Virus record (IMG/VR): IMGVR_UViG_3300037307_000719
Span: 1 to 64,000 of that record
Origin: a virus
Strand: one strand, 5' to 3'
Length of the DNA: 64,000 nucleotides
Each line of letters starts with the position of its first letter. Within the stretch, counting starts at the first letter, position 1. Shown one piece after another: positions 4,374-57,685 of the stretch. Both the position numbers and the translations under genes were made by a program. A model generated the notes under the pieces. It had not been told where the DNA came from and did not search any database. It saw only the letters and a program-made list of their open reading frames with translations.

Positions 4374-4417
4374 GGTAAAAGCTGAAAATCTGAAATGCGA
4401 AAAAGCTGAAAAAGAGG
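4374..4417 (+). repeat. GCTGAAAN octamer array (direct)
   Basis: GGTAAAAGCTGAAAATCTGAAATGCGAAAAAGCTGAAAAAGAGG. It abuts the start codon of the methyltransferase gene (CAT 4371-4373). Confidence 0.9.
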
Positions 4418-7571: not shown

Positions 7572-7612
7572 GGTAAAAGCTAAAATGCTGAAAAGCTGAA
7601 AAGCTGAAAGGT
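7572..7612 (+). repeat. GCTGAAAN octamer array (direct)
   Basis: Lies 5 nt from the VWA gene start codon (7566). A palindrome copy follows. Confidence 0.9.
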
Positions 7613-8264: not shown

Positions 8265-8360
8265 GGCAAAAGCTGAAATTTTGAGACGCTGAAATGCTGA
8301 AATGAAGAGGAAAAGCGCGGAGCTTTTTCAGTATTTCAGCATTTTAGTTTTTCAGCATTT
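8265..8360. repeat. Inverted pair of GCTGAAAN arrays (long hairpin)
   Basis: Left arm 8265-8310, right arm 8323-8360 (TTTCAGC units). It lies between the AAA gene stop and the next start codon. Confidence 0.85.
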
Positions 8361-9360: not shown

Positions 9361-9421
9361 GGTAAAAGCTGAAATTTTGAAAAGCTGAAATGCTGAAAAG
9401 CTGAAATGCTGAAAAAAGAGG
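9361..9421 (+). repeat. GCTGAAAN octamer array (direct, about 6 units)
   Basis: Abuts the AAA gene start (9357). Confidence 0.9.
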
Positions 9422-9730: not shown

Positions 9731-9780
9731 GAGTGAGCAGTGATCAGTGAGCAGTGATCAGTGATCAGTGGAGGAGAAGA
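9731..9780 (+). repeat. GTGA(T/G)CA heptamer array + GTGGAGGAGAAGA
   Basis: GAGTGAGCAGTGATCAGTGAGCAGTGATCAGTGATCAGTGGAGGAGAAGA. It lies between the 18-bp operator-like palindrome and a 14-bp palindrome copy. Confidence 0.9.
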
Positions 9781-10610: not shown

Positions 10611-10646
10611 GAGTGAGCAGTGAGCAGTGAGCAGTGGAGGAGAAGA
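10611..10646 (+). repeat. GTGAGCA heptamer array + GTGGAGGAGAAGA
   Basis: Abuts the start at 10608. A palindrome copy follows. Confidence 0.9.
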
Positions 10647-10689: not shown

Positions 10690-10947
10690 TCAGGCGACGG
10701 CGGCGAGGGTTTTGAGCGCTTCGATTTCGACGGCTTTGAGTTGCCAGCACCAGGTCATGTCGAGTTCGACATGCCAGCCGGGGCATTCGCAGCCGCCTTG
10801 GGCGAGGCGGCGGAGCTTGGCGCGGATTTCCTCATTGGTCATCTGGCCGAAGTCGAGAATGAGGGTGGAGCGGCATTTGAGGCAGGAAAAGCGGACGCGG
10901 CGGGAGCCGTCTTCATCGCAGCGGTAGGGTGTAAGGATGTCGCTCAT
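10690..10947 (-). CDS. Small Cys-rich (zinc-ribbon-like) protein
   Basis: Starts MSDILTPYRCDE. Contains Cys pairs CLKC and CEC. ATGA overlap at 10944-10947. Confidence 0.65.
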   Translation of the reverse strand: MSDILTPYRCDEDGSRRVRFSCLKCRSTLILDFGQMTNEEIRAKLRRLAQGGCECPGWHVELDMTWCWQLKAVEIEALKTLAAVA

Positions 10948-11147
10948 GGCTGGAGGGTTTCGAGGATGGTGCCGTGGCGGTGGAGCATGGAAACGGCGTT
11001 TTGCGGGCAGTAGTGGAAGGGGTGTTCGGCAAAGTCGTCGGTGGAGTAGCGGTCGAGCACGACGCAAATCGGCACGCCGGACATATCGGCGGTTTTAGCG
11101 GCATCTTTGCAGATAGCGATGAAGTGAGGCAGGGCGGCTTGAAGCAC
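10944..11147 (-). CDS. Hypothetical protein
   Basis: 67-aa ORF with a GTG start at 11145-11147. Confidence 0.5.
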   Translation of the reverse strand: MLQAALPHFIAICKDAAKTADMSGVPICVVLDRYSTDDFAEHPFHYCPQNAVSMLHRHGTILETLQP

Positions 11148-11181
11148 GGCGGAGGCTTCGGCGGAAAAAGGTCGGGAGTGT

Positions 11182-11820
11182 TCATGCGGCGACCTTGATG
11201 TTCATGCGGTGAAGGACAAGGGAGGCGATGGCTTGCTCGGGGGATGGGGCCATGATCCAGTGGTAGGTGGAGCGGGCCAGGTAGGAGGTGTGGTGTTGGG
11301 TGCGGCCGATCCAGTCGTGGCGGCAGTGGCGGAAGGTTGTCCACTCGGCGCGGGTGACGCCGGGGTGATCCGGGAGAGGGGTGAGAATGGCGTTGCGTGG
11401 GACAATGCGGGTGGCCTGATGGGTGGATTTGAGGCGGGTGAGCTTGCAGGTGAAGCTGGACAGGCCGCCGGTGTAGATTTTTCCGGAGTAGATGAAGGGG
11501 ACGTCGGTGGGGAGGAATTGGATGTCGATGCGGGCGACGCCGTACCAGTTGTGGCCTTTGGGGTTGAAGCCGATGCTGAACGGTTTGTTGAAGCCGTAGG
11601 GTTCGTGGTAGGTGGAGGATTCAGACCAATCCGGGGAGTGGATGGTGATGGACGGCACCTCCATGTTTTCGGCGGAGGAGATCTGGTAATGGACGGGGAT
11701 TTTGTCGTAGGGTTGGTGGTCGGGGCGGTGCTGGCGGAAGTAATGGGAGCAGTCCTTGTAGTATTTCCAGAAGTGAAGATCGGCCTCGCACCAGAGGGTT
11801 TCGTGGGTTCCGTGGGTCAT
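11182..11820 (-). CDS. Hypothetical protein
   Basis: 212-aa ORF rich in aromatic and His residues, non-repetitive. The ATG abuts an octamer array. Confidence 0.8.
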   Translation of the reverse strand: MTHGTHETLWCEADLHFWKYYKDCSHYFRQHRPDHQPYDKIPVHYQISSAENMEVPSITIHSPDWSESSTYHEPYGFNKPFSIGFNPKGHNWYGVARIDIQFLPTDVPFIYSGKIYTGGLSSFTCKLTRLKSTHQATRIVPRNAILTPLPDHPGVTRAEWTTFRHCRHDWIGRTQHHTSYLARSTYHWIMAPSPEQAIASLVLHRMNIKVAA

Positions 11821-11822: not shown

Positions 11823-11864
11823 GGTAAAAGCTGAAAGGTGAAAGCTGAAACGCTGAAATGAAAA
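11823..11864 (+). repeat. GCTGAAAN octamer array (direct)
   Basis: Abuts the start at 11820, with a terminator hairpin on its other side. Confidence 0.9.
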
Positions 11865-13253: not shown

Positions 13254-13299
13254 GGTAAATGCTGAAATTCTGAAACACTGAAAAGCTGAAATGAAGAGG
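13254..13299 (+). repeat. GCTGAAAN octamer array (direct)
   Basis: Abuts the start at 13250. Confidence 0.9.
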
Positions 13300-13716: not shown

Positions 13717-13827
13717 GGTAAAAGCTGAAATTTTGAAACGCTGAAACGCTGAAATGAAGAGGAAGAAAAGGGAGTGGAGCGCTCTGATTTCAGCTTTTCA
13801 GTATTTCAGCATTGCAGCTTTTTTTGA
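13717..13827. repeat. Inverted pair of GCTGAAAN arrays (long hairpin)
   Basis: Left arm 13717-13761, right arm 13786-13826, followed by TTTTTTT. It abuts the start at 13714. Confidence 0.85.
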
Positions 13828-13920: not shown

Positions 13921-13953
13921 GAGTGATCAGTGATCAGTGATCAGTGATCAGTG
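13921..13953 (+). repeat. GTGATCA heptamer array x4 (four GATC sites)
   Basis: GAGTGATCAGTGATCAGTGATCAGTGATCAGTG. It overlaps the 3' end of the 36-aa ORF. Confidence 0.9.
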
Positions 13954-15170: not shown

Positions 15171-15280
15171 GGCAAAAGCTGAAAGGCTGAGAATCTGAAA
15201 GGCTGAAAGGAAGAGATGAAAAAAAGAGAGGAGGCTCTGATTTCAGCTTTTCAGATTCTCAGCATTTCAGCGTTTATTTT
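15171..15280. repeat. Inverted pair of GCTGAAAN arrays (long hairpin)
   Basis: The arms share the core GCTGAGAATCTGAAA. The loop contains GAGAGGAGG (CCUCCUCUC on the minus-strand RNA). It abuts the dnaN start at 15168. Confidence 0.9.
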
Positions 15281-15494: not shown

Positions 15495-15534
15495 AGTGAG
15501 AAGTGATCAGTGAGCAGTGAGCAGCGGAAGAGGT
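15495..15534 (+). repeat. GTGA(T/G)(C/A)A heptamer array
   Basis: GAGTGAGAAGTGATCAGTGAGCAGTGAGCAGCGGAAGAGG, 20 nt from the start at 15475. Confidence 0.85.
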
Positions 15535-19080: not shown

Positions 19081-19124
19081 GGTAAAACTGAAAGGCTGAA
19101 ACGCTGAAATGCTGAAAAAAGAGG
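19081..19124 (+). repeat. GCTGAAAN octamer array (direct)
   Basis: Lies just downstream of the stop of 19129..19398. Confidence 0.85.
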
Positions 19125-19649: not shown

Positions 19650-19694
19650 TTAAAAGCTGAGATACTGAAATGCTGAAACGCTGAAAAGAAGAGG
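19650..19694 (+). repeat. GCTGAAAN octamer array (direct)
   Basis: Lies in the divergent region between the early and late blocks. Confidence 0.85.
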
Positions 19695-20300: not shown

Positions 20301-21992
20301 ATGCCGAAGTTGAATTTTCTGGAGCGGAGTTTGAGTGGAGTGGCTCCGCAGTGGGCGACGGATCATGCGGTGGCGAGGGCGAGGCTGAAGATGTTCGAGG
20401 CGGAGCCGGACTGGGCGAGCAGCTCGGTGAGGGGGAGGGCGGCGACGGCTGGAGACCAGGCGAACTCGGAAAGCTGGAAGAAGCAGCGGGAGCGGATCGA
20501 GGCGATCTGGGAGGGCCGGGCGATGGAGGAGAACCTGTGCGTGATCGCGGGGCTGCTGGACAAGATTTCGATGTACACCATCGGCAACCTGGAATACCGT
20601 CCGCAGACGGGGGACAAGGCGGCGGACCGGGAGTATGCGGATTATTTCCACGAGAAGTGCGGGGAGATCGATGTGACGGGGCGGCACCGGCTGAAAAAGC
20701 TGGCGGAGCTGGCGGTGCGGAGCATGTTCCGGGACGGGGAGTTCGGGTTTGTGGAGAGGCAGGAGGGACTGGACTACAAGCTCCAGGCGATCGAGGGGGA
20801 CCGAATCGGGAACCCGAACCAGCTCTCGCAGGCGGAGGACAACATCGGGGGGATCAAGATCGACATTGGGACGGGGCGGGTGACGGGGTATGAAATCCAC
20901 CGGAGGACGCGGACGAACCAATACCGGCTGGAGGGGACGATCGGGCCGGAGCGGTTCATCCACCTGTTCCGGCCGACGCGCTGCGACCAGTATCACGGGG
21001 TCTCGATTTTGAAGCCGGTGATTCCGCACGCGAAAGACCTCTACGAGTTGTTCGGCTATGAGAAGGTGGCGGCGAAGTTTGCGGCGAGTTTTGCGGGTTT
21101 GTTGAAGTCCGCCGATCCGTTCAGCCCGGACGGGGCAAACACGTGGGATACGCGGGGGACAGGCTCGAAGCTGCCAATGATGCAGGCGCAGGCAGGCACG
21201 CTGCAACGCATCAGCAAGGGGGAGGAAGTGGTGTTCGCGCCGGGGACGCAGCGGCCGAGCGGGGCGTTCATCGCGCTGGTGCAGGCGATTTTCCGTGAGA
21301 TCGCGCTGGGGACGAACCTGCCGTATGGGTTCATCTATGACATGGCGGTGTTTGGCGGGGTGACGGCGCGGCTGGAGACGCAACAGGCGGACCGGGTGTT
21401 CCAGCGTTTCCGGGAGATGCTGGTGGACACGATGCTGGAGCGGGTGAAGCGGAAGGTGCTGCTGGCGGGCATCGCCAAGCGGGAGATCCGGGCGGTGAAG
21501 ATGTGGAACAAGGGGAGCTGGAACTTCGGCGCGAGCCTGACAGGGGACATCGGCCATCAGGTGCAGGCGGACTCGACGATGGTGACCTTCGGGGTGAAGA
21601 CGCGGACGCGCTGGGCGGCGGAGCTGGGCGAGACGTTCGTGGACCTTGCGGACGAGGCGGCGAGCGAGATCGAAACCTTGCAACAGATTTCCGCGGAGCG
21701 GAACATTCCGCTGGAGCTGCTGAATGCGAGCCTGACGAACCCGACGGAGCTGGTGGCGAACCTGGCGAAGGCGCAAGCGGGGATTTCCGACGAGCCGGAG
21801 CCGCCGCCGGGGATGATCGGCCAGATTGGCGACAAGGGGGCGAAGACGGTGATTGATCTGCTGACGGCGGTGGGCCGGGGCGAGATCGACCGCCAGAGCG
21901 CGCGGATGACGCTGATTACGGTTCACGGGATGGAGCCGAGAGCGGCGGAGGCGGTGCTGCCGGACCCGATGAGGAGCCTACCGGCGGGGTAA
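20301..21992 (+). CDS. Portal protein (lambda-type)
   Basis: 563 aa. Position and overall pattern resemble lambda-family portals. TTGAC box plus GGGAGG upstream. Confidence 0.9.
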   Translation: MPKLNFLERSLSGVAPQWATDHAVARARLKMFEAEPDWASSSVRGRAATAGDQANSESWKKQRERIEAIWEGRAMEENLCVIAGLLDKISMYTIGNLEYRPQTGDKAADREYADYFHEKCGEIDVTGRHRLKKLAELAVRSMFRDGEFGFVERQEGLDYKLQAIEGDRIGNPNQLSQAEDNIGGIKIDIGTGRVTGYEIHRRTRTNQYRLEGTIGPERFIHLFRPTRCDQYHGVSILKPVIPHAKDLYELFGYEKVAAKFAASFAGLLKSADPFSPDGANTWDTRGTGSKLPMMQAQAGTLQRISKGEEVVFAPGTQRPSGAFIALVQAIFREIALGTNLPYGFIYDMAVFGGVTARLETQQADRVFQRFREMLVDTMLERVKRKVLLAGIAKREIRAVKMWNKGSWNFGASLTGDIGHQVQADSTMVTFGVKTRTRWAAELGETFVDLADEAASEIETLQQISAERNIPLELLNASLTNPTELVANLAKAQAGISDEPEPPPGMIGQIGDKGAKTVIDLLTAVGRGEIDRQSARMTLITVHGMEPRAAEAVLPDPMRSLPAG

Positions 21993-22051
21993 AAGCTGAA
22001 AAGCTGAAAGGCTGAAAAGCTGAAAGGCTGAAAAGCTGAAAGGCTGAAAGG
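21987..22051 (+). repeat. GCTGAAAN octamer array (direct, 7 units, most regular)
   Basis: The portal stop TAA lies inside GGGTAAAAGC. Units alternate GCTGAAAA and GCTGAAAG. Confidence 0.95.
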
Positions 22052-22063: not shown

Positions 22064-22068
22064 TTGAC
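22064..22068 (+). promoter_or_regulatory. TTGAC box, 19 nt before ATG 22083
   Basis: TTGACTTCCGGTGGCAGGGATG. Confidence 0.6.
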
Positions 22069-22082
22069 TTCCGGTGGCAGGG

Positions 22083-25000
22083 ATGGACCGATATGATGCG
22101 CGGAAGGTGACGCCGGTGGAGGCGAGTGCGAAGCTGGACGGGGTGTATGCGCGGGCGACGAGGGACGGGGTGTTTGCCAAGAGCGGGGTGCGGATGGCGG
22201 TGCCGCATGTGGAGAAGCGGCTGAAGCGGTATTTCCGGAAGCGGCCTGACGGGGCGCTGGAGGGGGAGCTGTGGCGAAGGAAGGCGGGGATCGAGCAGAT
22301 CGCGGGGGAGGCGCGGCGCGGCGGTGATGCGGCGAGGAAGCTGAAGCTGCATGTGTTTCCCGGGCAGGCGTCCCCTCCCCTGCCCTTTGGCGCGGTGCGG
22401 CGGGTGAAGGGGCACAAGGTCAAGGATGACGCGGGGGTGCAAAAGCGGCTGCGGAAAGCCTTGCGCAAGGGTCACGAAGGGGTGGTGGTGCGCGGAGCGG
22501 ACGGGGGGAAGGTGAAGCTGAAGCCGGAGATGGACCGGGAGTGGAGGGTCGAAGGTCTGAAAGTCGGAAAGTCGGGAGGTCTGAAGAGGAAGACGGTTCT
22601 GACGATGCGGACGGAGGACGGGAGGCCGTTCAAGGTTCAGGCGGGTGGCGGGGCGATGGGGGCGAAGGCGGGAGACCAGGTGACGGTGCGTTACTCGGGA
22701 TTGACACGGAGCGGGAAGCCGAAGGCGGCGGTGGCCGTGCGGGTGCGCAACGAGAAGGATTTTTCCATGAAACATTTCAAGACGAAGCCGGAGCTGACCG
22801 AGCGTGAGCGGGAGCAGGTTTCCAAGGACCGGAAGGCGCTGATGAAGGGGGCGGTTTTGACGGCTCTTGGCGGTGTGGCGGCGTATGGGGTTTTGCGGAT
22901 GCCGAAGTTCCGCAACGTGAAGGAAACGAGGACGCCCGCGGTGCTGCGGATGGGTCAGCGCGGGGTGGTAACGGGCCGGATGCACGGGCCGAAGCTGCCG
23001 GTGCCGGAGAAAGTGAAGGAAACGAGGACGCCCGCGGTGCTGCGGATGGGTCAGCGCGGGGTGGTAACGGGCCGGATGCACGGGCCGAAGCTGCCGGTGC
23101 CGGAGAAAGTGAAGGCACCGGGATTCAAAGAGGCGGCGCGGCTGAACAACGAGCGCAAGGGCGGGGTGAAGCGGCTGGTGAAGGCGGCGGAGCTGAAGCG
23201 GGAGCGGGCGTATGGGGCGCTGAAGCCACCGAGCGCGAAGCGGCTGGCCAAGCTGAACCCGGCGGTGCGGGCGCGCTACGAGCGGATGGACGAGGTGGCG
23301 CGGAGCAGCGGCCAACGGGGCTGGCTGCCAAGCGCGGCGACGGCAAAGAACACGAAGAAGGCACAAGGGCTGGGGGCGACCGGACAACTCAGCCCGGGCG
23401 AGGTGAAAAACGCGAGGAAGACCTGGCGGGTGAAACGGCAGAAGGCGCGGCAGGACTTGCTGCAATACCGGGAACAGAAGAATTTTTCCATGAAAACGCA
23501 GGACGACAGGAAGCAGGGATCAAACGGCGAGAAGCTGAAAAACGCGGCGGTGGCTGGCGGTGCGCTGGCCAGCGGCGGCGCGGCGGTCTATGGAGCGCGG
23601 CAGTGGGGCAAAACGAACAAGGCGCTGCGGGCTCACGCGGACGCTCTGGCGGCGCAACTGACGCCGAAGGAGATCGCCCGGCAAGTGGGCGCGGAGGTGG
23701 GCGGCAAGGCGAAGCGGACGCTGCGCGGGTATTTCCCGACCTTCATCAAGGCGGGGAAGAAGGTGAGCAAGGTGATGAAGACGCGGGTGAAGGGATTTGA
23801 AGAAAAGCCGCTGACGCATGAGGAGCTGGTGCAGCGGTATGGGCAAAGTCAGAAAAGCGGCAGACAGAAGAAAGAAGATCGGAAGCGCAAGCGCGGGTGG
23901 TTGTTTGAGACTCCTGCCTCGCGGTTGCTGAATTTTGGCAATGCGGAGCAGTGGCGGCGGGAGAGCGACCAGCGGTATGGGAGTCCGCTGAAGGGGGCGA
24001 TGGGCCTTGAGAAGGGGTATTACCGGAAGGACGCGGACGGTGAGCCGATCATCGAGGCACTGCCATTCCGGCAGGCGCAGGTCATCAAGAGCACCTACAA
24101 CAAGGCGAAGAAGGTGCAGAAATACGGCACGCGGGGTAGCGGCCTGCTGAAGGACGCGGGCGCGGTGGTGGCGGGGAGGCCAAGGGAAAAAGACCGCGCC
24201 GGGCGGGAGAAGAAACGCGAGTGGGAAAAGCCGTGGTTCAAGACGGCGGCGCGCAACGCGGCGATCACCGGGGCGATCCTGGTGGGCGCGAAGCATGTGG
24301 CGAAAGATCCGGAGAAGTGGCGCAAGCGGGTGAACAAGCATGTGATCCGGCCGATCAACCGGAAGGTGCCGGATTATTTGAAGGAGTGGGAGGAAGGGGT
24401 AAAAGCTGAAACGCTGAAAAGCGGAAATGCTGAAATGAAGAGTTTTGCGACTCCGGCGGGGAAGCTGTTGGGGAAGTTTGAGAAGCCCTTGCGCAAGGGT
24501 GGGCTGGGGAAGTTCCTGGGGCCGAGTGAGGTGCAGCGGACGGTGGCGAAGCAGCGCAAGGCACTGGCGGGCCGGGTGAAGGCGGCGGCGGCAAAGGGGA
24601 ATCAAAAGGCGGCGGCGATGGTGCCGCGAGTGAAGCATCACGCGGCGATGAAAGAGGCGGGCGTGAAGGCGTCGGAGCGGCGGCAGAAGGATGCCATCCG
24701 GGGCTTAAAAAAAGGCGCGGGGATCGCGGCTGGGGGTGCGGTGCTGGGCGGGGCGGCGATGAAGCTGCACGCGGACCAGCCGGAGGACCGGAAAGTGCGG
24801 GTGGGTGCGCGGTTCCGCAATGCTTTGGTGGGGGCGGCGGCGGGCTCTTATCTCGGGGCCGGTCTGCACACGGGCAAGAGCGGGTTCCGTGGGGCACGGC
24901 TTGGCGCGCTGGCGGGCGGGTTGATCGGCGCGGTGAGCAATCCGAAGCGCAAGCAGGTGATTGAGGATTTGCCGGTGGCGAGCTTTGCGGTAAAAGCTGA

Positions 25001-25391
25001 AACGCTGAAAAGCGGAAAAGCTGAAATGAAGAGGTTTGGGACTCCGGCCTCGCGCTTGCTGCATTTCGATGTGGATGCGGCGATGGCGGGGTGGGACATT
25101 CGTGATCCGAGGGGAAAGAGTGCGCGGGTGTATGCGCCGGGATCGAGGCGGCGCCACCGCAGGCCGAAGGAGTGGCATGAGCGGAAGGAGAACCGGGACA
25201 AGCTGGCGGCGGCGGCGGTGATCGCGGCAGGCGTGGGCGGGCTGGCGGTGGGCACGAAGCTGGGCAGGAAGCTGGCGCTGCGGAAGCAGGCGGCGGTGCC
25301 CTCCCCTGCTCCGGGCGGCATCAGCTACGGGCCGAAGATGGGACCGCGCAGCACGGTGAGGCCGGAAGGGTTTTACGGGCGGAGACGTTGA
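22083..25391 (+). CDS. Giant Lys/Arg/Gly-rich protein with an N-terminal ATP-dependent DNA ligase domain
   Basis: Ligase/nucleotidyltransferase motifs are present: I KLDGVYA, III LEGELW, IV EGVVVRG, V KVKLKP, plus an OB-like segment. The rest carries glycine-zipper hydrophobic segments and repeated modules. The ATG at 22083 is 19 nt from a TTGAC box. Confidence 0.75.
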   Translation: MDRYDARKVTPVEASAKLDGVYARATRDGVFAKSGVRMAVPHVEKRLKRYFRKRPDGALEGELWRRKAGIEQIAGEARRGGDAARKLKLHVFPGQASPPLPFGAVRRVKGHKVKDDAGVQKRLRKALRKGHEGVVVRGADGGKVKLKPEMDREWRVEGLKVGKSGGLKRKTVLTMRTEDGRPFKVQAGGGAMGAKAGDQVTVRYSGLTRSGKPKAAVAVRVRNEKDFSMKHFKTKPELTEREREQVSKDRKALMKGAVLTALGGVAAYGVLRMPKFRNVKETRTPAVLRMGQRGVVTGRMHGPKLPVPEKVKETRTPAVLRMGQRGVVTGRMHGPKLPVPEKVKAPGFKEAARLNNERKGGVKRLVKAAELKRERAYGALKPPSAKRLAKLNPAVRARYERMDEVARSSGQRGWLPSAATAKNTKKAQGLGATGQLSPGEVKNARKTWRVKRQKARQDLLQYREQKNFSMKTQDDRKQGSNGEKLKNAAVAGGALASGGAAVYGARQWGKTNKALRAHADALAAQLTPKEIARQVGAEVGGKAKRTLRGYFPTFIKAGKKVSKVMKTRVKGFEEKPLTHEELVQRYGQSQKSGRQKKEDRKRKRGWLFETPASRLLNFGNAEQWRRESDQRYGSPLKGAMGLEKGYYRKDADGEPIIEALPFRQAQVIKSTYNKAKKVQKYGTRGSGLLKDAGAVVAGRPREKDRAGREKKREWEKPWFKTAARNAAITGAILVGAKHVAKDPEKWRKRVNKHVIRPINRKVPDYLKEWEEGVKAETLKSGNAEMKSFATPAGKLLGKFEKPLRKGGLGKFLGPSEVQRTVAKQRKALAGRVKAAAAKGNQKAAAMVPRVKHHAAMKEAGVKASERRQKDAIRGLKKGAGIAAGGAVLGGAAMKLHADQPEDRKVRVGARFRNALVGAAAGSYLGAGLHTGKSGFRGARLGALAGGLIGAVSNPKRKQVIEDLPVASFAVKAETLKSGKAEMKRFGTPASRLLHFDVDAAMAGWDIRDPRGKSARVYAPGSRRRHRRPKEWHERKENRDKLAAAAVIAAGVGGLAVGTKLGRKLALRKQAAVPSPAPGGISYGPKMGPRSTVRPEGFYGRRR
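22459..22471. repeat. Palindrome copy CCTTGCGCAAGGG (13)
   Basis: Inside the ligase domain (translated ALRKG). Confidence 0.9.
22917..23108. repeat. Perfect tandem duplication, 2 x 96 bp
   Basis: 22917-23012 equals 23013-23108. Each copy encodes VKETRTPAVLRMGQRGVVTGRMHGPKLPVPEK. Confidence 0.95.
24407..24442 (+). repeat. GCTGAAAN array inside the giant ORF (third unit GCGGAAAT)
   Basis: Translated as VKAETLKSGNAEMK. The unit that would place a TGA in the ORF frame reads GGA instead. Confidence 0.9.
24486..24499. repeat. Palindrome CCCTTGCGCAAGGG (14/14)
   Basis: Inside the giant ORF (translated PLRKG). Confidence 0.95.
24989..25033 (+). repeat. GCTGAAAN array inside the giant ORF (third unit GCGGAAAA)
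   Basis: Translated as VKAETLKSGKAEMK. It shows the same stop-removing substitution. Confidence 0.9.
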
Positions 25392-25392: not shown

Positions 25393-25496
25393 GGTAAATG
25401 CTGAAAACTGAAACGCTGAAATGCTGAAAGGAAGAGGGCGGAGGCGCATTTCTTTTTCTGATTTCAGCGTTTCAGCATCTCAGCGTTTCAGCGTTT
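25393..25496. repeat. Inverted pair of GCTGAAAN arrays (long hairpin)
   Basis: Left arm 25393-25436, right arm 25458-25496. It lies between the giant ORF stop and the next TTGAC box. Confidence 0.85.
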
Positions 25497-25506
25497 GCCC
25501 TAGAAG

Positions 25507-25525: not shown

Positions 25526-26221
25526 ATGGCTCAGGAATCTTTGAAATCGTTGGAGGAACGCATGGACGAGCAGCTCCATGCGTTTGGGTATGGGGCATCC
25601 GAAGAGGAAACCCGGGGCAACCGCTCGGGACGACTGGTGGGGGCGGCGGCTGTCGGCACGGCGGGTGCGCTCGGGTTTGCGAAGCGCAAGCAGATCGCGC
25701 ACGGTGCGGGAGCCGGACTTGAAAAGGCCGGGGACATGCTGCGGCGCAAGGCGACGCTCGGGCCACGGGCGGCGGTGCTCAACCCGAACCGGATGCGCAA
25801 GGCGGCGGGACAGGCAGGAGACGTGCTGCTGCGCGGGGCGAAGAAGCTGAAAGGGTTTGGCGAGGTGTCCGCGCTGATCGAGCTGGCCGAGCGGGTGGCG
25901 GAGCTGGAGCTGGAGGCGGAGGAGGAGCTGATTGAGTTTGGCCGTATGGACGACATGCGTGCAAAAGCCAAAGGCTACGCCGGGCAGGCGAAGGCTGGTT
26001 ATGGCAAGGCTCGCAAGGCGGGGATGAGCATGGCTGCCGGGGCTGGTGCCCGTGCGGCGGATGGCGCGGCGCTGCTCAAGAAGTATCCAGGGCGTGCCGG
26101 TGGCATCGCAGGCGGGGTGGCCGCACTGGCAGGAGCCGGAGCGTATGGGATGCACCGCCACAAGAAAGCCAAGCGCCGGGATGAGCTGCTGGCGAGGTTC
26201 AAGAGCGGCAAGGCCGAATGA
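25526..26221 (+). CDS. Gly/Ala/Lys-rich protein with glycine-zipper segments (possible internal virion protein)
   Basis: 231-aa ORF with a TTGAC box 19 nt upstream. Its composition resembles the C-terminal modules of the preceding ORF. Confidence 0.75.
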   Translation: MAQESLKSLEERMDEQLHAFGYGASEEETRGNRSGRLVGAAAVGTAGALGFAKRKQIAHGAGAGLEKAGDMLRRKATLGPRAAVLNPNRMRKAAGQAGDVLLRGAKKLKGFGEVSALIELAERVAELELEAEEELIEFGRMDDMRAKAKGYAGQAKAGYGKARKAGMSMAAGAGARAADGAALLKKYPGRAGGIAGGVAALAGAGAYGMHRHKKAKRRDELLARFKSGKAE

Positions 26222-26230: not shown

Positions 26231-26306
26231 CGCAGGGTAGTTGAATCGGTAAAACGCTGGGCTCATACCCCGGAGGCTGTGGGTTCGATTCCCACTCCTG
26301 CAACCA
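26231..26306 (+). tRNA. tRNA-Met (CAT) with initiator (fMet) hallmarks and an encoded CCA
   Basis: A 76-nt cloverleaf was folded by hand. Features: C1-A72 mismatch, G29-G31:C39-C41 triple G:C pairs, anticodon loop CTCATAC, T-arm GTGGG-TTCGATT-CCCAC, G18G19, discriminator A73, terminal CCA. Confidence 0.9.
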
Positions 26307-26312: not shown

Positions 26313-26350
26313 GGGTAAATGCTGAAACGCTGAAAAGCTGAAACGAAGAG
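26313..26350 (+). repeat. GCTGAAAN octamer array (direct)
   Basis: Lies immediately after the tRNA. Confidence 0.85.
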
Positions 26351-26366: not shown

Positions 26367-27365
26367 ATGAACACACGATTGCTGGAAAGGTTGGACGCGA
26401 GGCTGAAGGAATTCATTTCCACGGAGGAACTGCCGTATGGGAGCGGGTTGATGGGGCCGAGCGAGAAGCCGAATTTTCCGGCGTTGTATCTGAGCCGCTC
26501 GACGGACCCTGGGCTGATGAAGCTGCCGGGCGAGGGCAGCGCGATGGTGCGCTACAAGGTGAAGCGGCGGGAGATCGATGAAAGCCGGGACGACGGGCAG
26601 CCGTTGTATGGGGCGAGCATCGAGATCCGGGAGATCGAGCCGGTGGCGGAGGAGGCGGAAGAGACGGGGCTGGAGAGCACGGTGTTTTTGAAGGAGTTTG
26701 CGGGTGGGTATGTAAATACCGATGAAGGAATCAAAAAGGAAAAAGGTATTGGCTCGCATCTAACGCGGAACGCCGGGAAGTATGTGGGAGGCGTTTTAGC
26801 CCCTGGTTCTTTGGGGCTATCGTTTGCGGGTGGCTACCTGATTGATAAAAAGCGCCGGAAGGGCAACATCGAAAGAACAAAAATTGAGGCCAAGCAGCCT
26901 TTGAAAGCTAAAGGTGATCCGGTGAATCGTAAAGAAAAGACGGGGCTGGAGAGCACGGTGTTTTTGAAGGAGTTTGCGCGGACTCCGGTTGGGAAGGTTT
27001 ACCCTTCCGCAAAATCGTTTTTTGGAGACCCGATTGTGAAAGGTCAGGTTTTGGTAAGGCACGGAAGAATGAGCAAGTCGGCCGCAACGGCAAAGCGTGC
27101 CGGGACTCATTCTATTCTTGCAAAGGCCGAAAGAAAGAAGTCAGCGGATGCCTTAAAACACGCTCGCAAGTTGGGGTTACGGGGCCATGAGTTTGGCGAG
27201 GCTCGTGACCGGGATGGTGAGGGGCGGTTTGCGGCGGGGAATGTGCCTGGGCCGCAGGACTATGCGATTGCGGATGCGGTGGCGAGGAAGCGCGGGAAGC
27301 GGGCGATGGCTCCGGTGGGCGGGGTGAACATTGCGCGGAATGCGCGGGGGCGCGTCGCCATGTGA
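26367..27365 (+). CDS. Lys-rich hypothetical virion-module protein with an internal duplication
   Basis: 332-aa ORF. It contains a 40-bp perfect direct repeat (TGLESTVFLKEFA twice) flanking a lower-GC segment. Confidence 0.75.
   Translation: MNTRLLERLDARLKEFISTEELPYGSGLMGPSEKPNFPALYLSRSTDPGLMKLPGEGSAMVRYKVKRREIDESRDDGQPLYGASIEIREIEPVAEEAEETGLESTVFLKEFAGGYVNTDEGIKKEKGIGSHLTRNAGKYVGGVLAPGSLGLSFAGGYLIDKKRRKGNIERTKIEAKQPLKAKGDPVNRKEKTGLESTVFLKEFARTPVGKVYPSAKSFFGDPIVKGQVLVRHGRMSKSAATAKRAGTHSILAKAERKKSADALKHARKLGLRGHEFGEARDRDGEGRFAAGNVPGPQDYAIADAVARKRGKRAMAPVGGVNIARNARGRVAM
26663..26978. repeat. 40-bp perfect direct repeat pair (26663-26702 and 26939-26978), in-frame, 276 bp apart
   Basis: GACGGGGCTGGAGAGCACGGTGTTTTTGAAGGAGTTTGCG occurs twice. 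The intervening DNA has lower GC. Confidence 0.9.
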
Positions 27366-27697: not shown

Positions 27698-27735
27698 GTA
27701 AATGCTGAAACGCTAAAAAGCTGAAATGCTGAAAG
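27696..27735 (+). repeat. GCTGAAAN octamer array (direct)
   Basis: Lies immediately after the terminator T-run. Confidence 0.85.
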
Positions 27736-27748: not shown

Positions 27749-27753
27749 TTGAC
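27749..27753 (+). promoter_or_regulatory. TTGAC box, 22 nt before ATG 27771
   Basis: TTGACTTCGGGACGGGTGGTGTATG. Confidence 0.55.
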
Positions 27754-27770: not shown

Positions 27771-28952
27771 ATGAGCACGAACACCATTAGCAAGTTTCCG
27801 GCGGTTTATCATTTCGAGAGCGGGGCGAGCAGCCTGAACGTGGACAAGGAGAAGGGGGTGATCTATGGCGTGAGCCTGATTACTTCCGGCATCACGGCCA
27901 AGGGTCATGACCTTGAGGTGGATGGCAAGACGCTGGAGCAGATGCTCTCCTGCGCGGAGAAGAAGGGGAAGATCCCGGTGAAGTGGAATCACAAGACGGG
28001 AGCGGACGCGGTGAGCGGGTATTTGAGAAACTTCCGGATCGAGGGGCGCAAGCTGGTGGGGGACTGGAAGCTGCTGAAAAGCCACGAGCGGTATCAGCAC
28101 GCGCTGGAGCTGGCGAGCGAGATGCCGGAATGCCTTGGTCTCTCGACCTCGTTCCGAGGGGAGGACGAGGTGGTGGGTGACCGGAAGTTCGCACGCTGCA
28201 CGGAGCTGGTGAGCGCGGACCTGGTGGCGAGTCCGGCGGCGAATCCGAACGGGTTTTTCGAGGAAGGGCCGGGCGAGGTTGACAGGCAGGGAAAAGGCAT
28301 GGCCGAGAAAGCACAAACAAACAGCGCCGGAACCCCGTCCCAAGAGAAGGAATTCTCGCTTGCGGATGTCATGGCCGGTATTTCGCAAATCAATCAACGC
28401 ATCGACGGGATCGAGGAAAAGGTAACGTCCTTTGAAGCGTTTCAGGATGAAGTGATCCGGTCCTTTGAGGAGGGCATGGATGATGACGACGGGGGTGGAG
28501 AAGGCGCGGGCGGCGAGGCCGACGTGGAATTCTCCAGCGGTGCGGAAGCGCTGCAATACCTGCATGAGAAGCTCGCCTCCATCGAGGACGCGAAGGAAAG
28601 CGCGAAGATCGAGCGCGCCTTTGCCGCCTACGACGAGAAGGTCGAGGCACTCATCGAGCTGAACGAGCAACTCGCCACGGAGAACGCGGCGATGGCCGAC
28701 GCTCTGATGGAGTTCCAGGAAAAGACCGGACGCGAAGTGCATTTCAGCGTGGGCGCGGAAGGCGGCTACGAACACCAGCTTTCCGAGACAACTCCGGACG
28801 GACGCAAGCTCACCGAGTTCGAGGCCCGCTGCAAGCAGTTCGAGGCAAACGGCAAGAGCGAGACCGAGGCCATCACGCTGGCCATGAAGGAAGATCCGAA
28901 GCGCTACCAGAAGCACTTGCAGGCGCTCGGGATCATCAACCGCAGCCTGTAA
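27771..28952 (+). CDS. Prohead protease (HK97/S78-like) fused to a scaffold-like coiled-coil
   Basis: The N-terminus has IPVKWNHKTG (His motif) and GLSTSF (Ser motif). The C-terminal half is acidic coiled-coil. It lies upstream of the decoration and capsid genes. Confidence 0.8.
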   Translation: MSTNTISKFPAVYHFESGASSLNVDKEKGVIYGVSLITSGITAKGHDLEVDGKTLEQMLSCAEKKGKIPVKWNHKTGADAVSGYLRNFRIEGRKLVGDWKLLKSHERYQHALELASEMPECLGLSTSFRGEDEVVGDRKFARCTELVSADLVASPAANPNGFFEEGPGEVDRQGKGMAEKAQTNSAGTPSQEKEFSLADVMAGISQINQRIDGIEEKVTSFEAFQDEVIRSFEEGMDDDDGGGEGAGGEADVEFSSGAEALQYLHEKLASIEDAKESAKIERAFAAYDEKVEALIELNEQLATENAAMADALMEFQEKTGREVHFSVGAEGGYEHQLSETTPDGRKLTEFEARCKQFEANGKSETEAITLAMKEDPKRYQKHLQALGIINRSL

Positions 28953-37539: not shown

Positions 37540-38120
37540 AACCACCACTTGAAAAAGCCATTATCCCGTTCATGGGATTCACCGAAAAGGAGGGTGAGCT
37601 ATCCGGCACCGAAGATGCGTTTCGTTTGGTCCTGCGCAAGTTCGCCTCACCTTCCGTGACAGTCTATCACCCTCGTTCGTGGGCCGCCGACGTGCGAAAG
37701 ATCGCAGCGCAGCTCGTGCGTTTTGGCGTGAAGGAAATTGTCATCATCTCCTACTCGCATGGCTCCGCCGCAGCCGTTGCACTCGCCAAGGAATGTGCGA
37801 AGAACAAAATTTCCGTTAGTAAGTGGCTGTCTTGCGATGCTGTCGCCCGGCCAAGGCTGCCACGCCACAATCTTTTCCAAATCTTCACCCTGCCGCGAGT
37901 TCTGGCGGCCAACGCCCATATCAAGGTTCCGGCCAACGTGATGGAGGTGGACGGCGTTCGCCAACGCACCCAATGGCCCTACGGCTGCGACTTAAAAGCC
38001 ACTGGTTACACCCGGCACAAGTGCCTTAAATACCTCATGGCCGGGCACACTCAAATCGACTCTCACCCTGACTGGTGGGCGCTGGTCGAAAAGCACCTAA
38101 CCGAGTGGACCACACCATGA
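37536..38120 (+). CDS. Alpha/beta-hydrolase (esterase/lipase-like) in the lysis cassette
   Basis: 194 aa with the nucleophile elbow IISYSHGSAAA (S-x-S-x-G). It sits between the TM protein and the endolysin. Confidence 0.75.
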   Translation: MKPPLEKAIIPFMGFTEKEGELSGTEDAFRLVLRKFASPSVTVYHPRSWAADVRKIAAQLVRFGVKEIVIISYSHGSAAAVALAKECAKNKISVSKWLSCDAVARPRLPRHNLFQIFTLPRVLAANAHIKVPANVMEVDGVRQRTQWPYGCDLKATGYTRHKCLKYLMAGHTQIDSHPDWWALVEKHLTEWTTP

Positions 38121-38986
38121 AAACCATCATCCATCTCGACGGCGACGCCTATGCCTTGGATGCCCGCAAGCCGATCCACAAAGGCATGCACCACCCAGAC
38201 GTTGAAATCCTGAAACGCATCCTGCGGCGGAACGGATTCTGGGCCGGGAGCAACTCGACGTTTTTCGGAGCGGAGACCGAAAACGCTGTGAAGTATTTCC
38301 AGAGCACCCACATCGACAAGGACGGGAAGTTTTTGCTCACTGATGGCGTGGTCGGTCCGAAGACATGGTGGGCACTCTACAACGCCTCCGGGCCGGAACA
38401 GCAAAACAACATCCCGACGCCAAAGACCGAGTTCGAGGAGCGGTATGGCATGCTCTCGATAACGAGGCAGGTGTTTCTGGATGCCGCTCTCAAGGAACAT
38501 TACGAGCGGACCCACGAGATACCGGACGGCAGCAACAAAGGCGATGGCGTCAACAAGCTGATTGCCGGGTTCGGTCCCGCGCCGTGGTGCATGCTTTTCG
38601 TCTCATGGCTTCACAAGCAGGCAACGGGCGAATGGCCGCTCGGCCACCAGCACGCGCATGTTCAGACGTTCTGGCGAGATGCCTCCAAGGCTGGCATGAC
38701 ACTGGCCAAGAGCGCGGTCCCGGCACCGGGCGACTGCATCGTGTGGGCGTTCCCCGGTGGCTCCGGCCACATCGCGGTTGTGGTGGCAACGAGTGCGAGC
38801 GGCAAGACGATCAACACCATCGGCGGGAATGAAGGCAATCGGGTCAAGCTGGGCGTCCGTTACCCGGAGCAAGAGCGGCATGTGGTTGGCTACGTGCGGC
38901 TTTTCGGCGATGCCCCGAGCGACTTCCCTTTCCGGCTGATTGATAAAACGGAGGCGGGCGGAATGACTTTGGCCGACAGCCGGTGA
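38117..38986 (+). CDS. Endolysin: peptidoglycan-binding domain + CHAP/NlpC-P60-like amidase
   Basis: PG-binding pattern: GFWAGSNSTFFGAETENAVKYFQ...DGVVGPKTWWAL. Catalytic-type Cys (PAPWCMLFVSW) and His (GSGHIAVVV) are present. Confidence 0.9.
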   Translation: MKTIIHLDGDAYALDARKPIHKGMHHPDVEILKRILRRNGFWAGSNSTFFGAETENAVKYFQSTHIDKDGKFLLTDGVVGPKTWWALYNASGPEQQNNIPTPKTEFEERYGMLSITRQVFLDAALKEHYERTHEIPDGSNKGDGVNKLIAGFGPAPWCMLFVSWLHKQATGEWPLGHQHAHVQTFWRDASKAGMTLAKSAVPAPGDCIVWAFPGGSGHIAVVVATSASGKTINTIGGNEGNRVKLGVRYPEQERHVVGYVRLFGDAPSDFPFRLIDKTEAGGMTLADSR

Positions 38987-46369: not shown

Positions 46370-48508
46370 ATGGATCATGCCTCTGCGACACCGATTGTAA
46401 TTCCGCTGCATCACGGGGGCGGAAAGTTCAGGAACGATTCCGAGCTGCGCTATGCGCTGCGGTCGATTGCCAGACATTTCAAAGGCAGCCACCGGATCAT
46501 CATCGTGGGCAAGAAGCTGCCCGCATGGATACAGGGGGTGGAGCATGTGTATGGGGAGGGCTTGAAGTCCTCCCTGATCGCGGCGGCGAATTGTTTCCCT
46601 GACGGATTCTTGTGGTGGTATGACGATTGTTGTCTGCTGCGGGACAGCACGGTGGAGGAGCTGAAGGTCACGCCGGCTTGCAAGGGCTGGGGCAAGCCCA
46701 AAACAGCATGGAGCCGCAAGCTGGAAAAAATCCGGCAAAGGCTGGTGAAGGAAGGATACCCGGCAAGGGATTATTCCCGTCCGCACGGTCCATACTGGTT
46801 CGACAAGGGAATGGTGGACGAGGGCTTTTCCGACTGGCCGGGCATGAAGGCGAAATTCCCATGGGAAAGCTGGATTTTGTCCAAGCGCGACTGGCCGCGC
46901 TGCCATGGGACGGTGCAGCAATACTATGGTCCTTTCCGCTCACCTCCGGGCGGGAACCGAAGATATGTGAACTGGTCTGACAGGGGATTCACCTCCGGAT
47001 TGCGGTCTTATCTGGACGCCCGGTTCCCGGAGACGAGCTGCTACGAGACCTCCGTGCCGGAGCGCGGGCCGGTGGCAAGCTCCTCTCCGCGCGTTACTGT
47101 GGTGGTGGCGATGAAGGGCAGGACGGAGGCCTGGGTGCGGCATGCGCGGAGCTGGCTCAATCATCCGATGGTGGCGGAATGCGTGGTGGTTGACTGGTCG
47201 GATGAGAATCCGGTGGCATCCCACCCCGGAGTGATGGAAATCATGGAAGAGTATCCGTTTGTGAAAATCGTCCGGGTCGAAAACGAGGCGGCTTTTCACA
47301 TAGGCAAGGCGTTCAATGTGGGGTTCAGCCGTGCGAGCATGGATTTGATCGCCAAGACGGACGCCGATGTGGAGCTGGTCAACCCGCTGTGGTTCATGCT
47401 CGCGGCAAAGGATGTGGCGAGCGGATCGGGCGTTTTTTACAAAGGGAAGGGCAAGGGGCTGCCGGGGACGTTTCTGGCCACAAGGGAGATGGTTCAAAAA
47501 GTTGGGGGATTCCGCGAGGACTTTGTCGGCTACGGCTGGGACGATACGGACCTCTACAAGCGGATGTCGTCGGCGGGTGGCGTCTTGAAGATGTATGGCA
47601 AAGGGGTGTTGTATCACGAACCCCATTCCGACGCCAAGCGCACCGAATACTATCAGAATAAGCGCAGGAAAACCACGATGCGCCGGAACCGCACCATCGC
47701 TCTGGACGGGTCGAAGCCGCCGCCTCCAAGCGTCTATCAGGTCATAAGCTCAAGCGGCAGGCTGGAGGTCTTGGAGAAGGCCACCCAGAGATTGTGCGGT
47801 CCCTTGCTGCCGTTGGACACATGGGCGGAGGCGTTCGAGCCTTATCGTGGGATGAAGGTCAACCCGCCCGAGCTGGCAAGGGGAAACGCCGGTGACAGGA
47901 TGATCTGGCAGGCCGTAAGGGCTCTTTACTCCCATTACGGACTGACCGTGGTTTCCAAAGACTGGGACGTTTTTATGTGGCCGGGAGGCGGCAACATGGG
48001 TAGAAAATATGCGGGCAACCGAGCGATCCGAAGGCGACATTTCCAGAACGCCGTGAAACGCGGAACCCCTATTGTGATCCTACCTCAATCGTGGACGGGC
48101 GATGATCCCGACGTCCCGGCATCGGCGGTCGTATTCGCAAGGGAGCGTGCGACGATGCCGCCGGGCAGCAGCCTGCTGCCCGATCTCGCGCTTGCATGGT
48201 CCGGCATGGTGACATGCCCGCCTGCCGTGGATGACAGGCCGGACGAAGAGTGGTTCATGCGGCGGGACAAGGAGAAAACGGGAGACACGCGCGGCATCGA
48301 CCCGGCGATAGGATGCAAAAGCGTCACGGCTTATCTGGAGCTGGCAGCCGGGAGGAAACACGTCCACACCAACAGGCTGCACTTTGCCATTGCCTGCCTG
48401 ATCGTGAACACTCCTGTCACCTTGCGTCCTGGGAGCTACGGCAAGAACCGTGGCGTGTGGGAATACTCGCTGGCCGACCTCGGCTGCAAATGGGGAGGTG
48501 AAGCATGA
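46370..48508 (+). CDS. Multi-domain glycosyltransferase / pyruvyl-transferase
   Basis: 712 aa. The N-terminal module is sugar-transferase-like. The central module is GT2-like (VVVAMKG.., DADVE, GGFREDFVGYGWDDTDLYKRM). The C-terminal module resembles polysaccharide pyruvyl-transferases (WPGGGNMG, HTNRLHFAIA). Confidence 0.85.
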   Translation: MDHASATPIVIPLHHGGGKFRNDSELRYALRSIARHFKGSHRIIIVGKKLPAWIQGVEHVYGEGLKSSLIAAANCFPDGFLWWYDDCCLLRDSTVEELKVTPACKGWGKPKTAWSRKLEKIRQRLVKEGYPARDYSRPHGPYWFDKGMVDEGFSDWPGMKAKFPWESWILSKRDWPRCHGTVQQYYGPFRSPPGGNRRYVNWSDRGFTSGLRSYLDARFPETSCYETSVPERGPVASSSPRVTVVVAMKGRTEAWVRHARSWLNHPMVAECVVVDWSDENPVASHPGVMEIMEEYPFVKIVRVENEAAFHIGKAFNVGFSRASMDLIAKTDADVELVNPLWFMLAAKDVASGSGVFYKGKGKGLPGTFLATREMVQKVGGFREDFVGYGWDDTDLYKRMSSAGGVLKMYGKGVLYHEPHSDAKRTEYYQNKRRKTTMRRNRTIALDGSKPPPPSVYQVISSSGRLEVLEKATQRLCGPLLPLDTWAEAFEPYRGMKVNPPELARGNAGDRMIWQAVRALYSHYGLTVVSKDWDVFMWPGGGNMGRKYAGNRAIRRRHFQNAVKRGTPIVILPQSWTGDDPDVPASAVVFARERATMPPGSSLLPDLALAWSGMVTCPPAVDDRPDEEWFMRRDKEKTGDTRGIDPAIGCKSVTAYLELAAGRKHVHTNRLHFAIACLIVNTPVTLRPGSYGKNRGVWEYSLADLGCKWGGEA

Positions 48509-57085: not shown

Positions 57086-57685
57086 ATGGAACAGGATCAA
57101 CCCGAGTTGCCTGTGGGGGAAGCGGAGGAGAGGCTTTCGCAGTGGGCCAAGAACCAAACCGAGCTTGCGGCGGAGCTGGGCTGTGCGCGGGAGACGATTC
57201 AGCGGTGGTTGAAGGCGGGCGATCCGGATTGTCCGGGGAAGACAAGCGACGGGCGCTACAACGTATCGTTGTGGAAGATCTGGATTGAGACGAAGGGGAA
57301 GAAGGTCCGGGCAGCGGTGAAGGGTAGGGACAAGGGGGCGCTGGAGATGGAGAACATGCGGCTGCGGAACGAGAAGCTGCAAATCGAGAATCTGCTGAAA
57401 CAGGGCGAGCTGCTGCATGTGGACGAGGTGTGCGGGGTCTTGACCGAAATGATGGGAGCGTTCGTGAAAAAAGTGCGCGGGATGAAGCACACGCTGCCGA
57501 ACGCGGTGGTGGGGGTTTCGATACCGGAGGCGACGAAGCGGGTGGATCGTGAGGCGGTGGAGGCGCTTCTGGAGCTATCGCTGGGCGAGTGGGCAAAAAA
57601 AAAACCGTTTTGGTCGAGCGTTTATGCGCGGCTGCAAGACCTTCAACGGACACACAGCCTTGGAAGTGGGCTGAGCGACACGTAA
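57086..57685 (+). CDS. Terminase small subunit (Nu1-like HTH)
   Basis: 199 aa. N-terminal HTH QTELAAELGCARETIQRWLKAG. Followed by, and overlapping, the TerL gene. Confidence 0.85.
   Translation: MEQDQPELPVGEAEERLSQWAKNQTELAAELGCARETIQRWLKAGDPDCPGKTSDGRYNVSLWKIWIETKGKKVRAAVKGRDKGALEMENMRLRNEKLQIENLLKQGELLHVDEVCGVLTEMMGAFVKKVRGMKHTLPNAVVGVSIPEATKRVDREAVEALLELSLGEWAKKKPFWSSVYARLQDLQRTHSLGSGLSDT

Follow-up and report, generated by a model that had tools for sequence, protein, structure and literature searches.

A Lig E-like DNA ligase domain on a giant post-portal protein of Verrucomicrobiota phages, and a repeat element lying in frame within its gene

Podoviruses encode ejection or internal core proteins (gp14 to gp16 of T7; gp7, gp20 and gp16 of P22), among which T7 gp16 carries a transglycosylase. 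In Rickettsia, palindromic elements inserted in frame in protein genes were reportedly described by Ogata et al. in 2000. Both bear some likeness to the locus analysed here, a 1,102-aa open reading frame (ORF) in the IMG/VR virus record IMGVR_UViG_3300037307_000719 (positions 1 to 64,000, the whole 64,000-nt stretch analysed and hereafter the window), and so do two further systems. Post-portal MuF proteins are carriers of effector domains, and the InPase domain is described as specific to phage-type polyvalent proteins that are thought to be packaged; the text of the paper on polyvalent proteins mentions RNA ligases only and no DNA ligase (PMC5512222). Canonical Lig E is a stand-alone DNA ligase of ca. 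250-280 aa with an N-terminal periplasmic leader peptide, is almost wholly proteobacterial, and has been searched for a phage link without one being found (PMC8455567). Lig E enzymes seal nicks, and cohesive ends more weakly (PMC10799422).

The ORF is located directly downstream of the portal gene and its product joins an N-terminal ligase domain to a long basic tail, the C-terminal part of which defines a previously unannotated protein family of ca. 300 clusters. Judging from sequence comparison, it is one conserved gene of Verrucomicrobiota phages and prophages and not a recent fusion. The reading that is slightly favoured here is that the protein is a capsid-packaged and injected cargo or effector, of the kind seen in polyvalent or ejection proteins, by which the ligase would be delivered.

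The gene occurs on the plus strand from an ATG at 22083, preceded by an in-frame GTG at 22074, to a TGA at 25389-25391. As the earlier note on this DNA had stated, frame 0 contains no stop over this length, while the other two plus-strand frames contain 60 and 20. In every 300-nt block of frame 0, the G+C content at third codon positions lies between 0.72 and 0.90 and third-position G between 0.51 and 0.75, a uniformity which indicates that the frame is coding from end to end; the accidental opening of a 1,102-codon frame has a p of ca. e^-20 at the lower of the two stop densities. A perfect 96-bp tandem duplication (VKETRTPAVLRMGQRGVVTGRMHGPKLPVPEK x 2; 32 aa x 2.1) found at 22917-23115, in the most variable region of the ORF, may have arisen very recently or be an effect of assembly. 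The exact protein sequence has no record in public assemblies and tblastn against 50,697 GenBank phage records returned 0 matches. The ORF and its ligase features are as follows.

22083..25391, + strand: giant post-portal ORF, with single-ORF orthologues in L001, L002, L004, L006, L012 and L013
22083..22766, + strand: minimal Lig E/T7-type ATP-dependent DNA ligase domain, made of a nucleotidyltransferase (NTase) and an OB part, residues 1-228
22131..22151, + strand: motif I, KLDGVYA, residues 17-23, with catalytic Lys17 (from the Lig E and family alignments)
22257..22274, + strand: motif III, LEGELW, residues 59-64 (E60, G61 and E62 invariant)
22476..22496, + strand: motif IV, EGVVVRG, residues 132-138 (E132 and G133 invariant)
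22509..22526, + strand: motif V, KVKLKP, residues 143-148 (K145, K147 and P148 invariant)

Residues 1-228 match phrog_114 "ATP-dependent DNA ligase" (E 6e-12) and the Lig E structure 8u6x of the PDB (E 1.8e-7, or 1.7e-11 with the family profile), with both the NTase and OB parts covered. An AlphaFold2 (AF2) run on the full-length protein with an 11-sequence alignment gave a predicted local confidence (pLDDT) of 70-80 for residues 15-222, and the best 14 Foldseek matches to this model were all DNA ligases (E 3.5e-9 to 2e-4), with those of Lig E, African swine fever virus (ASFV), T4, Chlorella virus and T7 at the top. The four ligase motifs that the earlier note had read within residues 1-230 are thus all present, together with the KLDG lysine and a predicted ligase fold. 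Lys17, E60-G61-E62, E132-G133 and K145/K147/P148 are invariant in members down to 39% identity, and the K17-L-D-G stretch, which aligns with KLDG of Lig E, is invariant in every domain-bearing member. In the Pfam search of the protein, PF14743 reached 24.4 bits (cut-off 28) and PF01068 had no match.

In common with Lig E (N. gonorrhoeae 8u6x, Psychromonas 4d05, Alteromonas 6gdr) and with the T7 and Chlorella virus ligases, the domain is composed of NTase and OB parts with no extra DNA-binding domain. These ligases provide the best matches in sequence and fold; motifs I, III, IIIa (LHVFP in this domain), IV and V align, as does the C-terminal OB strand (KPKAAVAVRVR versus TPKFATFVRVR). The phage domain differs in being ca. 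25-40 residues shorter, in having Tyr or His for the Arg of motif I, in its fusion to an 870-residue tail encoded in the head module, and in a host phylum that is here Verrucomicrobiota. It is also leaderless, motif I starting at residue 17 with no hydrophobic leader in front, and therefore does not represent a canonical periplasmic Lig E. Its sequence and predicted structure suggest an unusually minimal ATP-dependent ligase that is probably active.

Relatives of the gene support its unity. In the IMG/VR contigs L001 (1,181 aa, 67% identity) and L002 (1,388 aa, 62%) it is a single ORF, and a search of a 5.8-billion-protein set detected 11 proteins of 894-1,388 aa, all collinear. Relatives down to ca. 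38% identity each have one uninterrupted ORF with 0 stops, and the short database entries resemble contig-end fragments or a minimal core rather than individual modules. A profile of the C-terminal part, run against 1.84 billion cluster representatives, gathered 304 members in which the core is invariably C-terminal and the N-termini vary in length. The ligase domain occurs at or near the N-terminus in 18-19 of the 155 family proteins fetched. Other domains take its place elsewhere: among 38 long family members, six carry InPase with the ligase absent and six carry DUF6321, the latter also being found in L007 and L010, while an LRAT/NlpC-P60 domain is found on the chassis (the conserved C-terminal part) of the protein of L009, a prophage of Verrucomicrobium sp. 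BvORR034. L009 has no ligase fusion and has instead a stand-alone Lig C/D-type ligase gene (PF01068 and PF04679) directly after the giant gene, the inserted genes lying in the head module at 10703-11422 and 11492-12421 of L009. Since this ligase is of a different subfamily, the link between ligase and module arose twice, independently. Beside the ligase gene of L009, an SRAP-like gene was called by eye from its N-terminal MCNRY.

Wherever the DNA was at hand, gene order is constant: a lambda-family portal, the giant gene, two small basic genes, a protease-like gene, a scaffold gene and the major capsid gene. The hosts of genome matches are Akkermansiaceae, Oceaniferula, Verrucomicrobiaceae and Verrucomicrobium sp. 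BvORR034, and one such match is a prophage within a 1.95-Mb contig. A metagenome scan for close relatives, in which presence or absence of the arrays described below might be polymorphic, found none, and a metagenome profile scan returned only 9 distant loci.

Residues 229-1102, like the product as a whole, have an isoelectric point (pI) of 11 and 23% Lys+Arg, and are predicted at low confidence by AF2 to be helical or disordered. Among the modules named in the earlier note, the ligase domain was recognised by hidden Markov model and structure searches and the tail modules matched no family: neither Pfam nor PHROGs gave a family above threshold for the tail (nor for that of the 10 closest relatives), the only trace being a sub-threshold match to Gly-zipper_YMGG at residues 911-951. 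Fold searching is uninformative on the tail because the ligase domain alone is confident in AF2. The tail nevertheless has recurrent features, which are listed below; hydrophobic segments are those with a Kyte-Doolittle mean >1.0 over 17 residues.

22755..22772, + strand: junction AAGGATTTTTCCATGAAA (KDFSMK), located where the OB domain has its conserved end (RNxxDF); judged from sequence, a degenerate box
22851..22901, + strand: hydrophobic Gly/Ala segment 1, residues 257-273
23478..23495, + strand: junction AAGAATTTTTCCATGAAA (KNFSMK), in frame
23544..23594, + strand: hydrophobic Gly/Ala segment 2, residues 488-504
23880..25277, + strand: conserved C-terminal core, residues 600-1065, common to ca. 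300 clusters of post-portal proteins
23904..23939, + strand: FxTPA box 1 (FETPASRLLNFG)
24444..24479, + strand: FxTPA box 2 (FATPAGKLLGKF)
24717..24767, + strand: hydrophobic Gly-zipper segment 3, residues 879-895
24885..24935, + strand: hydrophobic Gly-zipper segment 4, residues 935-951, within the sub-threshold Gly-zipper_YMGG match
25035..25070, + strand: FxTPA box 3 (FGTPASRLLHFD), which opens the most conserved module (AGWDIRDPRGKSARV...KEWHE)
25203..25253, + strand: hydrophobic segment 5, residues 1041-1057, the strongest (Kyte-Doolittle 2.1)

The peptide F-x-TPA-x-x-LL occurs three times in the ORF (residues 608, 788 and 985), as previously noticed, and among the other long ORFs of the window only the related FARTPVGKV was found, in the gene at 26367-27365. 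Across the family the box reads F-x-T-P-A-x-[RKG]-[LIM]-[LIF]-x-F and is present in 3-5 copies per member with the F, T, P and A columns invariant. The 18-nt junction repeat AAG(G/A)ATTTTTCCATGAAA is located in frame at 22755, as the earlier note had it, and at 23478 rather than at the 23475 given there. At this second site, the orthologues P0005 and P0006 have a complete KNF-xTPA box, and on sequence grounds both the KDFSMK and KNFSMK junctions are regarded as degenerate FxTPA boxes. The six glycine-zipper segments of the earlier note are approximately right, five segments lying above threshold (starting at residues 257, 488, 879, 935 and 1041) and two weaker ones at ca. 722 and ca. 914. In the core, the order is box 1, GKPRxRDxxGRxKKREWEKxWF, AGWDxRDPRGxSARVFAPGSRxRxRRxKEWHE and then a hydrophobic segment.

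A repeat element of ca. 45 nt, composed of GGTAAA(A/T), 4 x GCTGAAAN (32 nt) and (T/G)GAAGAG, occurs in at least 17 copies in this genome versus 0 expected by chance. It has four units, except for seven in the copy at 21995-22050. Its positions in the window are given below.

Element copies, left part of the window: 4377-4412, 7579-7610, 8268-8304, 9364-9415, 11823-11858, 13261-13292, 13734-13754, 15178-15209
Further element copies in the window: 19087-19118, 19656-19687, 21995-22050, 25400-25430, 26321-26344, 27704-27735, 62816-62839
21989..22050, + strand: element with 7 units, upstream of the ORF and with the portal stop codon inside
24398..24442, + strand: in-frame element copy 1 (array 24405-24436), unit 3 with a T-to-G change
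24989..25033, + strand: in-frame element copy 2 (array 24996-25027), with the phase and T-to-G change of copy 1
25393..25499, no strand assigned: element and inverted copy, a 107-nt hairpin directly 3' of the ORF stop (-56.5 kcal/mol, z -7.3)
Element-pair hairpins in the window: 8268-8360, 13734-13822, 15178-15275, 25396-25496
Element-pair hairpins in relatives: L002 7392-7486, 7780-7857 and 14172-14283; L013 4351-4467 and 14499-14621

Single copies of the element are always on the plus strand, irrespective of the direction of the adjacent gene. In the minus-strand left arm the element takes up nearly the entire spacer between genes and its GGTAAA end directly adjoins the initiation codon of the gene next to it, while in the right arm the same end encloses the stop codon with which the preceding gene terminates. 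Inverted partners located 30-50 nt away accompany four of the copies, and each such pair forms a perfect hairpin of ca. 32 bp with no U-tract, probably a transcript-end or processing structure. A role of the arrays as an "unstructured leader" enhancing translation was discarded, because the strand is fixed despite gene direction and AGCU repeats can pair. A phage-protein binding site, a recombination linker and a replication or packaging signal are candidate roles for the element, and the literature searched yielded no account of arrays of this kind in Verrucomicrobia phages. A second tandem 7-mer family, AGTGATC / AGTGAGC, was observed in 3.6-5.6 copies in the minus-strand arm (9732-9770, 10612-10636, 13922-13953 and 15495-15524).

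Related phages have arrays of the same architecture built from other units (AGAGACC, AGACGCA, GGTCAGC, CAACTCT, TGAATTT, AGTTGAG, GATAGGA and others), with ca. 4 units and often a GAAGAG flank; such variant-unit arrays were seen in L002, L013, L004, L008, L012 and L001. A 39-nt array, AGACGCA-AGACTTG-AAGACGCA-AGACGCA-AGA-GAAGAGG, is identical between L002 and L013. That the architecture is constant and the unit sequence differs points to turnover of units or to co-evolution with a trans-acting factor. In L002 and L013 the units inside the giant ORF match the intergenic arrays of the same genome, and the number of in-frame arrays in the giant ORF reaches five in L002 and six in L008. Over 12 loci, array density is 0.45/kb in the giant ORFs versus 0.04/kb in other long plus-strand ORFs, a difference of ca. 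10-fold. The likeness to the Rickettsia palindromic elements lies in a short genome-wide repeat that occurs both between genes and in frame within them, and is tolerated in surface or linker regions; the element described here differs in being a tandem array of 4 units of 7-8 nt with fixed flanks, in the variation of its unit sequence among related phages, and in the concentration of its coding copies in one gene family.

In the ORF itself, the observations of the earlier note on the two arrays all stand in the sequence: both are in frame, both have GCGGAAA as unit 3 where GCTGAAA would create an in-frame TGA, and both lead into an in-frame ATG (at 24435 and 25026, opening MKSFATP and MKRFGTP). 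From these it had been proposed that the ORF results from the fusion of formerly separate genes by loss of stop codons across the arrays, with separate products still being made, either from internal starts at the ATGs behind the arrays or through cutting of the junctions by the prohead protease. Indeed, each in-ORF copy is a full-length copy of an otherwise intergenic element (the two agree at 44/46 positions, and their upstream flanks are unrelated), the T-to-G change occurs in no intergenic copy, and the protein is modular with an FxTPA box at the start of each module. Cleavage at the boxes would be compatible with this scheme as well. The element sequence, however, dictates what looked like gene remnants. 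Its consensus has stops in all three frames, and in just one of these the unit 3 TGA is the only stop; both in-ORF copies occupy that frame, where the TGA now reads GGA and the 3' flank A-TGAAGAG reads ATG AAG AG. It is therefore the element that forces the common phase, the T-to-G substitution and the in-frame ATG, none of which is evidence of vestigial starts, and Met is not conserved at the post-array sites among relatives. Furthermore, P0004 and P0007 are continuous through "...ASF-xTPA..." without an array, as is L001 where L002 has one, and the in-ORF copies have no TTGAC-containing spacer of the kind that trails the element in right-arm intergenic regions. These two facts indicate that the arrays are linker insertions of 45-51 nt, or precise losses, and not relics of gene boundaries. 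In P0009, GCTGAAA-type peptides occur at both array sites, its "SRN" peptide suggesting, at the peptide level, a possible independent T-to-C/A fix. With no stop at the junctions of any relative and a single stop-free ORF in all full-length ones, the fusion proposal was abandoned as very improbable.

In the reading favoured above, the C-terminal ca. 450-870 residues would form the family-defining chassis, basic and largely disordered or helical, which would be weakly membrane-active and would guide the protein into the procapsid beside the portal; during infection the protein would leave together with the DNA and touch the membrane. An interchangeable enzymatic head would be formed by the first 228 residues, replaced in relatives by InPase, DUF6321 or an NlpC/P60-like domain. 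The ligase would acquire its adenylate in the producing cell, enter the capsid and be delivered along with the genome, and in this pre-adenylated state would require no ATP for a single turnover. Temperate phages circularise before integrating, and the delivered enzyme might act on the DNA that enters by closing its nicks or annealed ends, allowing circularisation before integration or replication, or might be used to repair damage caused by host nucleases. Cleavage by the prohead protease at the FxTPA boxes would be compatible with such a role. The element copies would have inserted in disordered linkers just upstream of the boxes and would survive there because one T-to-G change opens the sole frame that a single change can open.

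By analogy with described systems, the protein would function in the manner of polyvalent proteins or MuF-effector fusions, and perhaps of podovirus ejection proteins, while failing their sequence-based tests. As with the polyvalent and MuF-effector proteins, it is large and its gene neighbours the portal gene in a portal-terminase phage, with protease-like, scaffold and capsid genes downstream and TerS/TerL in the same genome. It differs from them in having the ligase as its only effector domain, where polyvalent proteins have two or more, usually together with hallmark domains, and no MuF, metallopeptidase or other catalogued domain. Phage_Mu_F had no Pfam or PHROG match, and the post-portal position is the sole feature shared with MuF proteins and SPP1 gp7. 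With the podovirus ejection proteins it shares three consecutive non-capsid genes in the head module, hydrophobic segments and, in the relative L009, an NlpC/P60-LRAT domain comparable to the transglycosylase of T7 gp16; it differs in showing no sequence similarity and in a gene position after the portal and before the protease. The idea of an internal or ejection protein, already voiced in the earlier note, receives indirect support by analogy from InPase and NlpC/P60-LRAT on the chassis of relatives.

Several points weigh against the injected-cargo reading. The case for packaging is built on gene position and analogy, and Pfam and PHROG searches revealed no likeness to known ejection proteins and no MuF, peptidase or other hallmark domain in the protein. 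The ligase is the sole recognisable catalytic domain in it and in its 10 closest relatives, AF2 confidence is low past residue 230, and the Gly/Ala-rich segments are weakly hydrophobic. Catalytic competence is not assured either, as the Arg of motif I (KxDGxR), kept in Lig E and in the ASFV ligase, is replaced by Tyr22 here and by Tyr or His in all 17 aligned members, and the NTase part is shortened, with loops IIIa-IV and IV-V shorter than in any solved Lig E. Lastly, no further ligase was found among the scanned proteins of the window; the domain could be the ordinary ligase of the phage. A literature search found no precedent for a phage virion or ejection protein bearing a DNA ligase.

That the scanned window proteins include no further ligase also favours an alternative in which the protein is not packaged and acts as a late-expressed membrane- or DNA-associated factor, its ligase, an ordinary one tethered near the portal or membrane, closing nicks of concatemers or of maturing DNA ahead of packaging or while it proceeds. 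The co-orientation of the gene with the head genes, a very basic composition suited to DNA binding and the hydrophobic segments would all fit, but InPase, DUF6321 and NlpC/P60-like domains on the same chassis are better explained by swappable delivered effectors, and the slot after the portal is the classic one for packaged minor head proteins such as MuF/gp7 (PMC5512222); this alternative is considered unlikely. The altered motif I and shortened loops, together with the absence of a PF01068 match and the below-threshold PF14743 score, could also mean that the ligase-like domain no longer ligates and has become a nick- or end-binding module that holds or protects a genome end in the capsid and after injection. 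Mu N and T4 gp2 are end-protection proteins to which it would then be functionally comparable. This seems quite improbable, because a catalytic Lys and motifs III, IV and V that stay invariant down to 39% identity are hard to explain without nucleotidyl-transfer chemistry.

Combining the injected-cargo reading with the behaviour of the element leads to a broader proposal, put forward tentatively and rather unlikely to hold as a whole, in which a virion-injected, pre-adenylated, single-turnover ligase on a membrane-active carrier is combined with an active class of repeats colonising the linkers of one protein family. The genome ends or nicks would be sealed on arrival by the ligase on its disordered carrier, and genome-specific repeats would repeatedly enter the linkers of the family in frame, driving its modular growth.

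The window corresponds to nearly the whole genome of a temperate phage, with an integrase (53342-54361), an endolysin (38075-38986), TerS/TerL (57086-59409) and replication genes on the minus strand. The neighbours of the giant ORF are listed here.

20301..21992, + strand: lambda-family portal protein, directly upstream of the ORF
25526..26221, + strand: syntenic basic Gly-rich protein 1
26231-26306, + strand: tRNA-Met (CAT), between the two small post-giant genes
26367..27365, + strand: syntenic protein 2, with the box-like motif FLKEFARTP
27771..28952, + strand: head maturation protease-like protein (weak match)

The placement of the ORF in the head module, directly after the portal gene, was correctly given in the earlier note; two genes and the tRNA-Met separate it from the protease-like gene. 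BLASTP detected no paralogy between the giant protein and the two proteins downstream. At the place equivalent to that of the tRNA gene, L001 and L002 have tRNA-like 3' ends (GGTTCGATTCCC...). Many plus-strand structural genes have a TTGAC 17-20 nt ahead of their ATG, the ORF among them (window positions 22064-22068 and 27749-27753), and it also occurs in relatives (L002 ca. 7495, 7866 and 14293; L001 ca. 1660; L012 and L013). It was rejected as the -35 box of a sigma-70 promoter, as the ATG lies merely ca. 17-20 nt downstream, and folding predicts no stable hairpin around it.

GC skew is +0.26 to +0.40 over 2-28 kb, where genes are on the minus strand at 1-19.7 kb and on the plus strand at 20-28 kb; its sign, constant across both gene directions, is thus not set by the direction of transcription and may reflect unidirectional replication. 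Among the late genes, a 712-aa protein (46370-48508) has glycosyltransferase and polysaccharide pyruvyl-transferase matches and may, from these, be an enzyme modifying glycans of the host surface or of the virion. Finally, the terminase genes lie ca. 25 kb from the portal gene round the genome, with the minus-strand replication arm in between, a separation that is unusual for a lambda-type pair.

Enzymes that are injected with phage DNA, such as the N4 RNA polymerase, T4 Alt and the P1 Dar proteins, are decisive in the opening minutes of an infection. A ligase delivered in this way, if real, would add a new activity to those injected, namely the immediate sealing or repair of the incoming genome, and would suggest a counter-measure to nicking or cutting defences. 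Should the broader proposal hold, a phage DNA ligase delivered by the virion would have been seen for the first time, and the origin of Lig E-type enzymes, of which the domain described here is a phage-borne, leaderless relative, might have a viral context. For annotation, arrays within this ORF are to be taken neither for gene boundaries nor for sequencing errors, and the in-frame elements provide a clean natural case of repeats remodelling a protein. The family of ca. 300 clusters, with its conserved chassis and swappable heads, provides a handle for finding new injected effectors.

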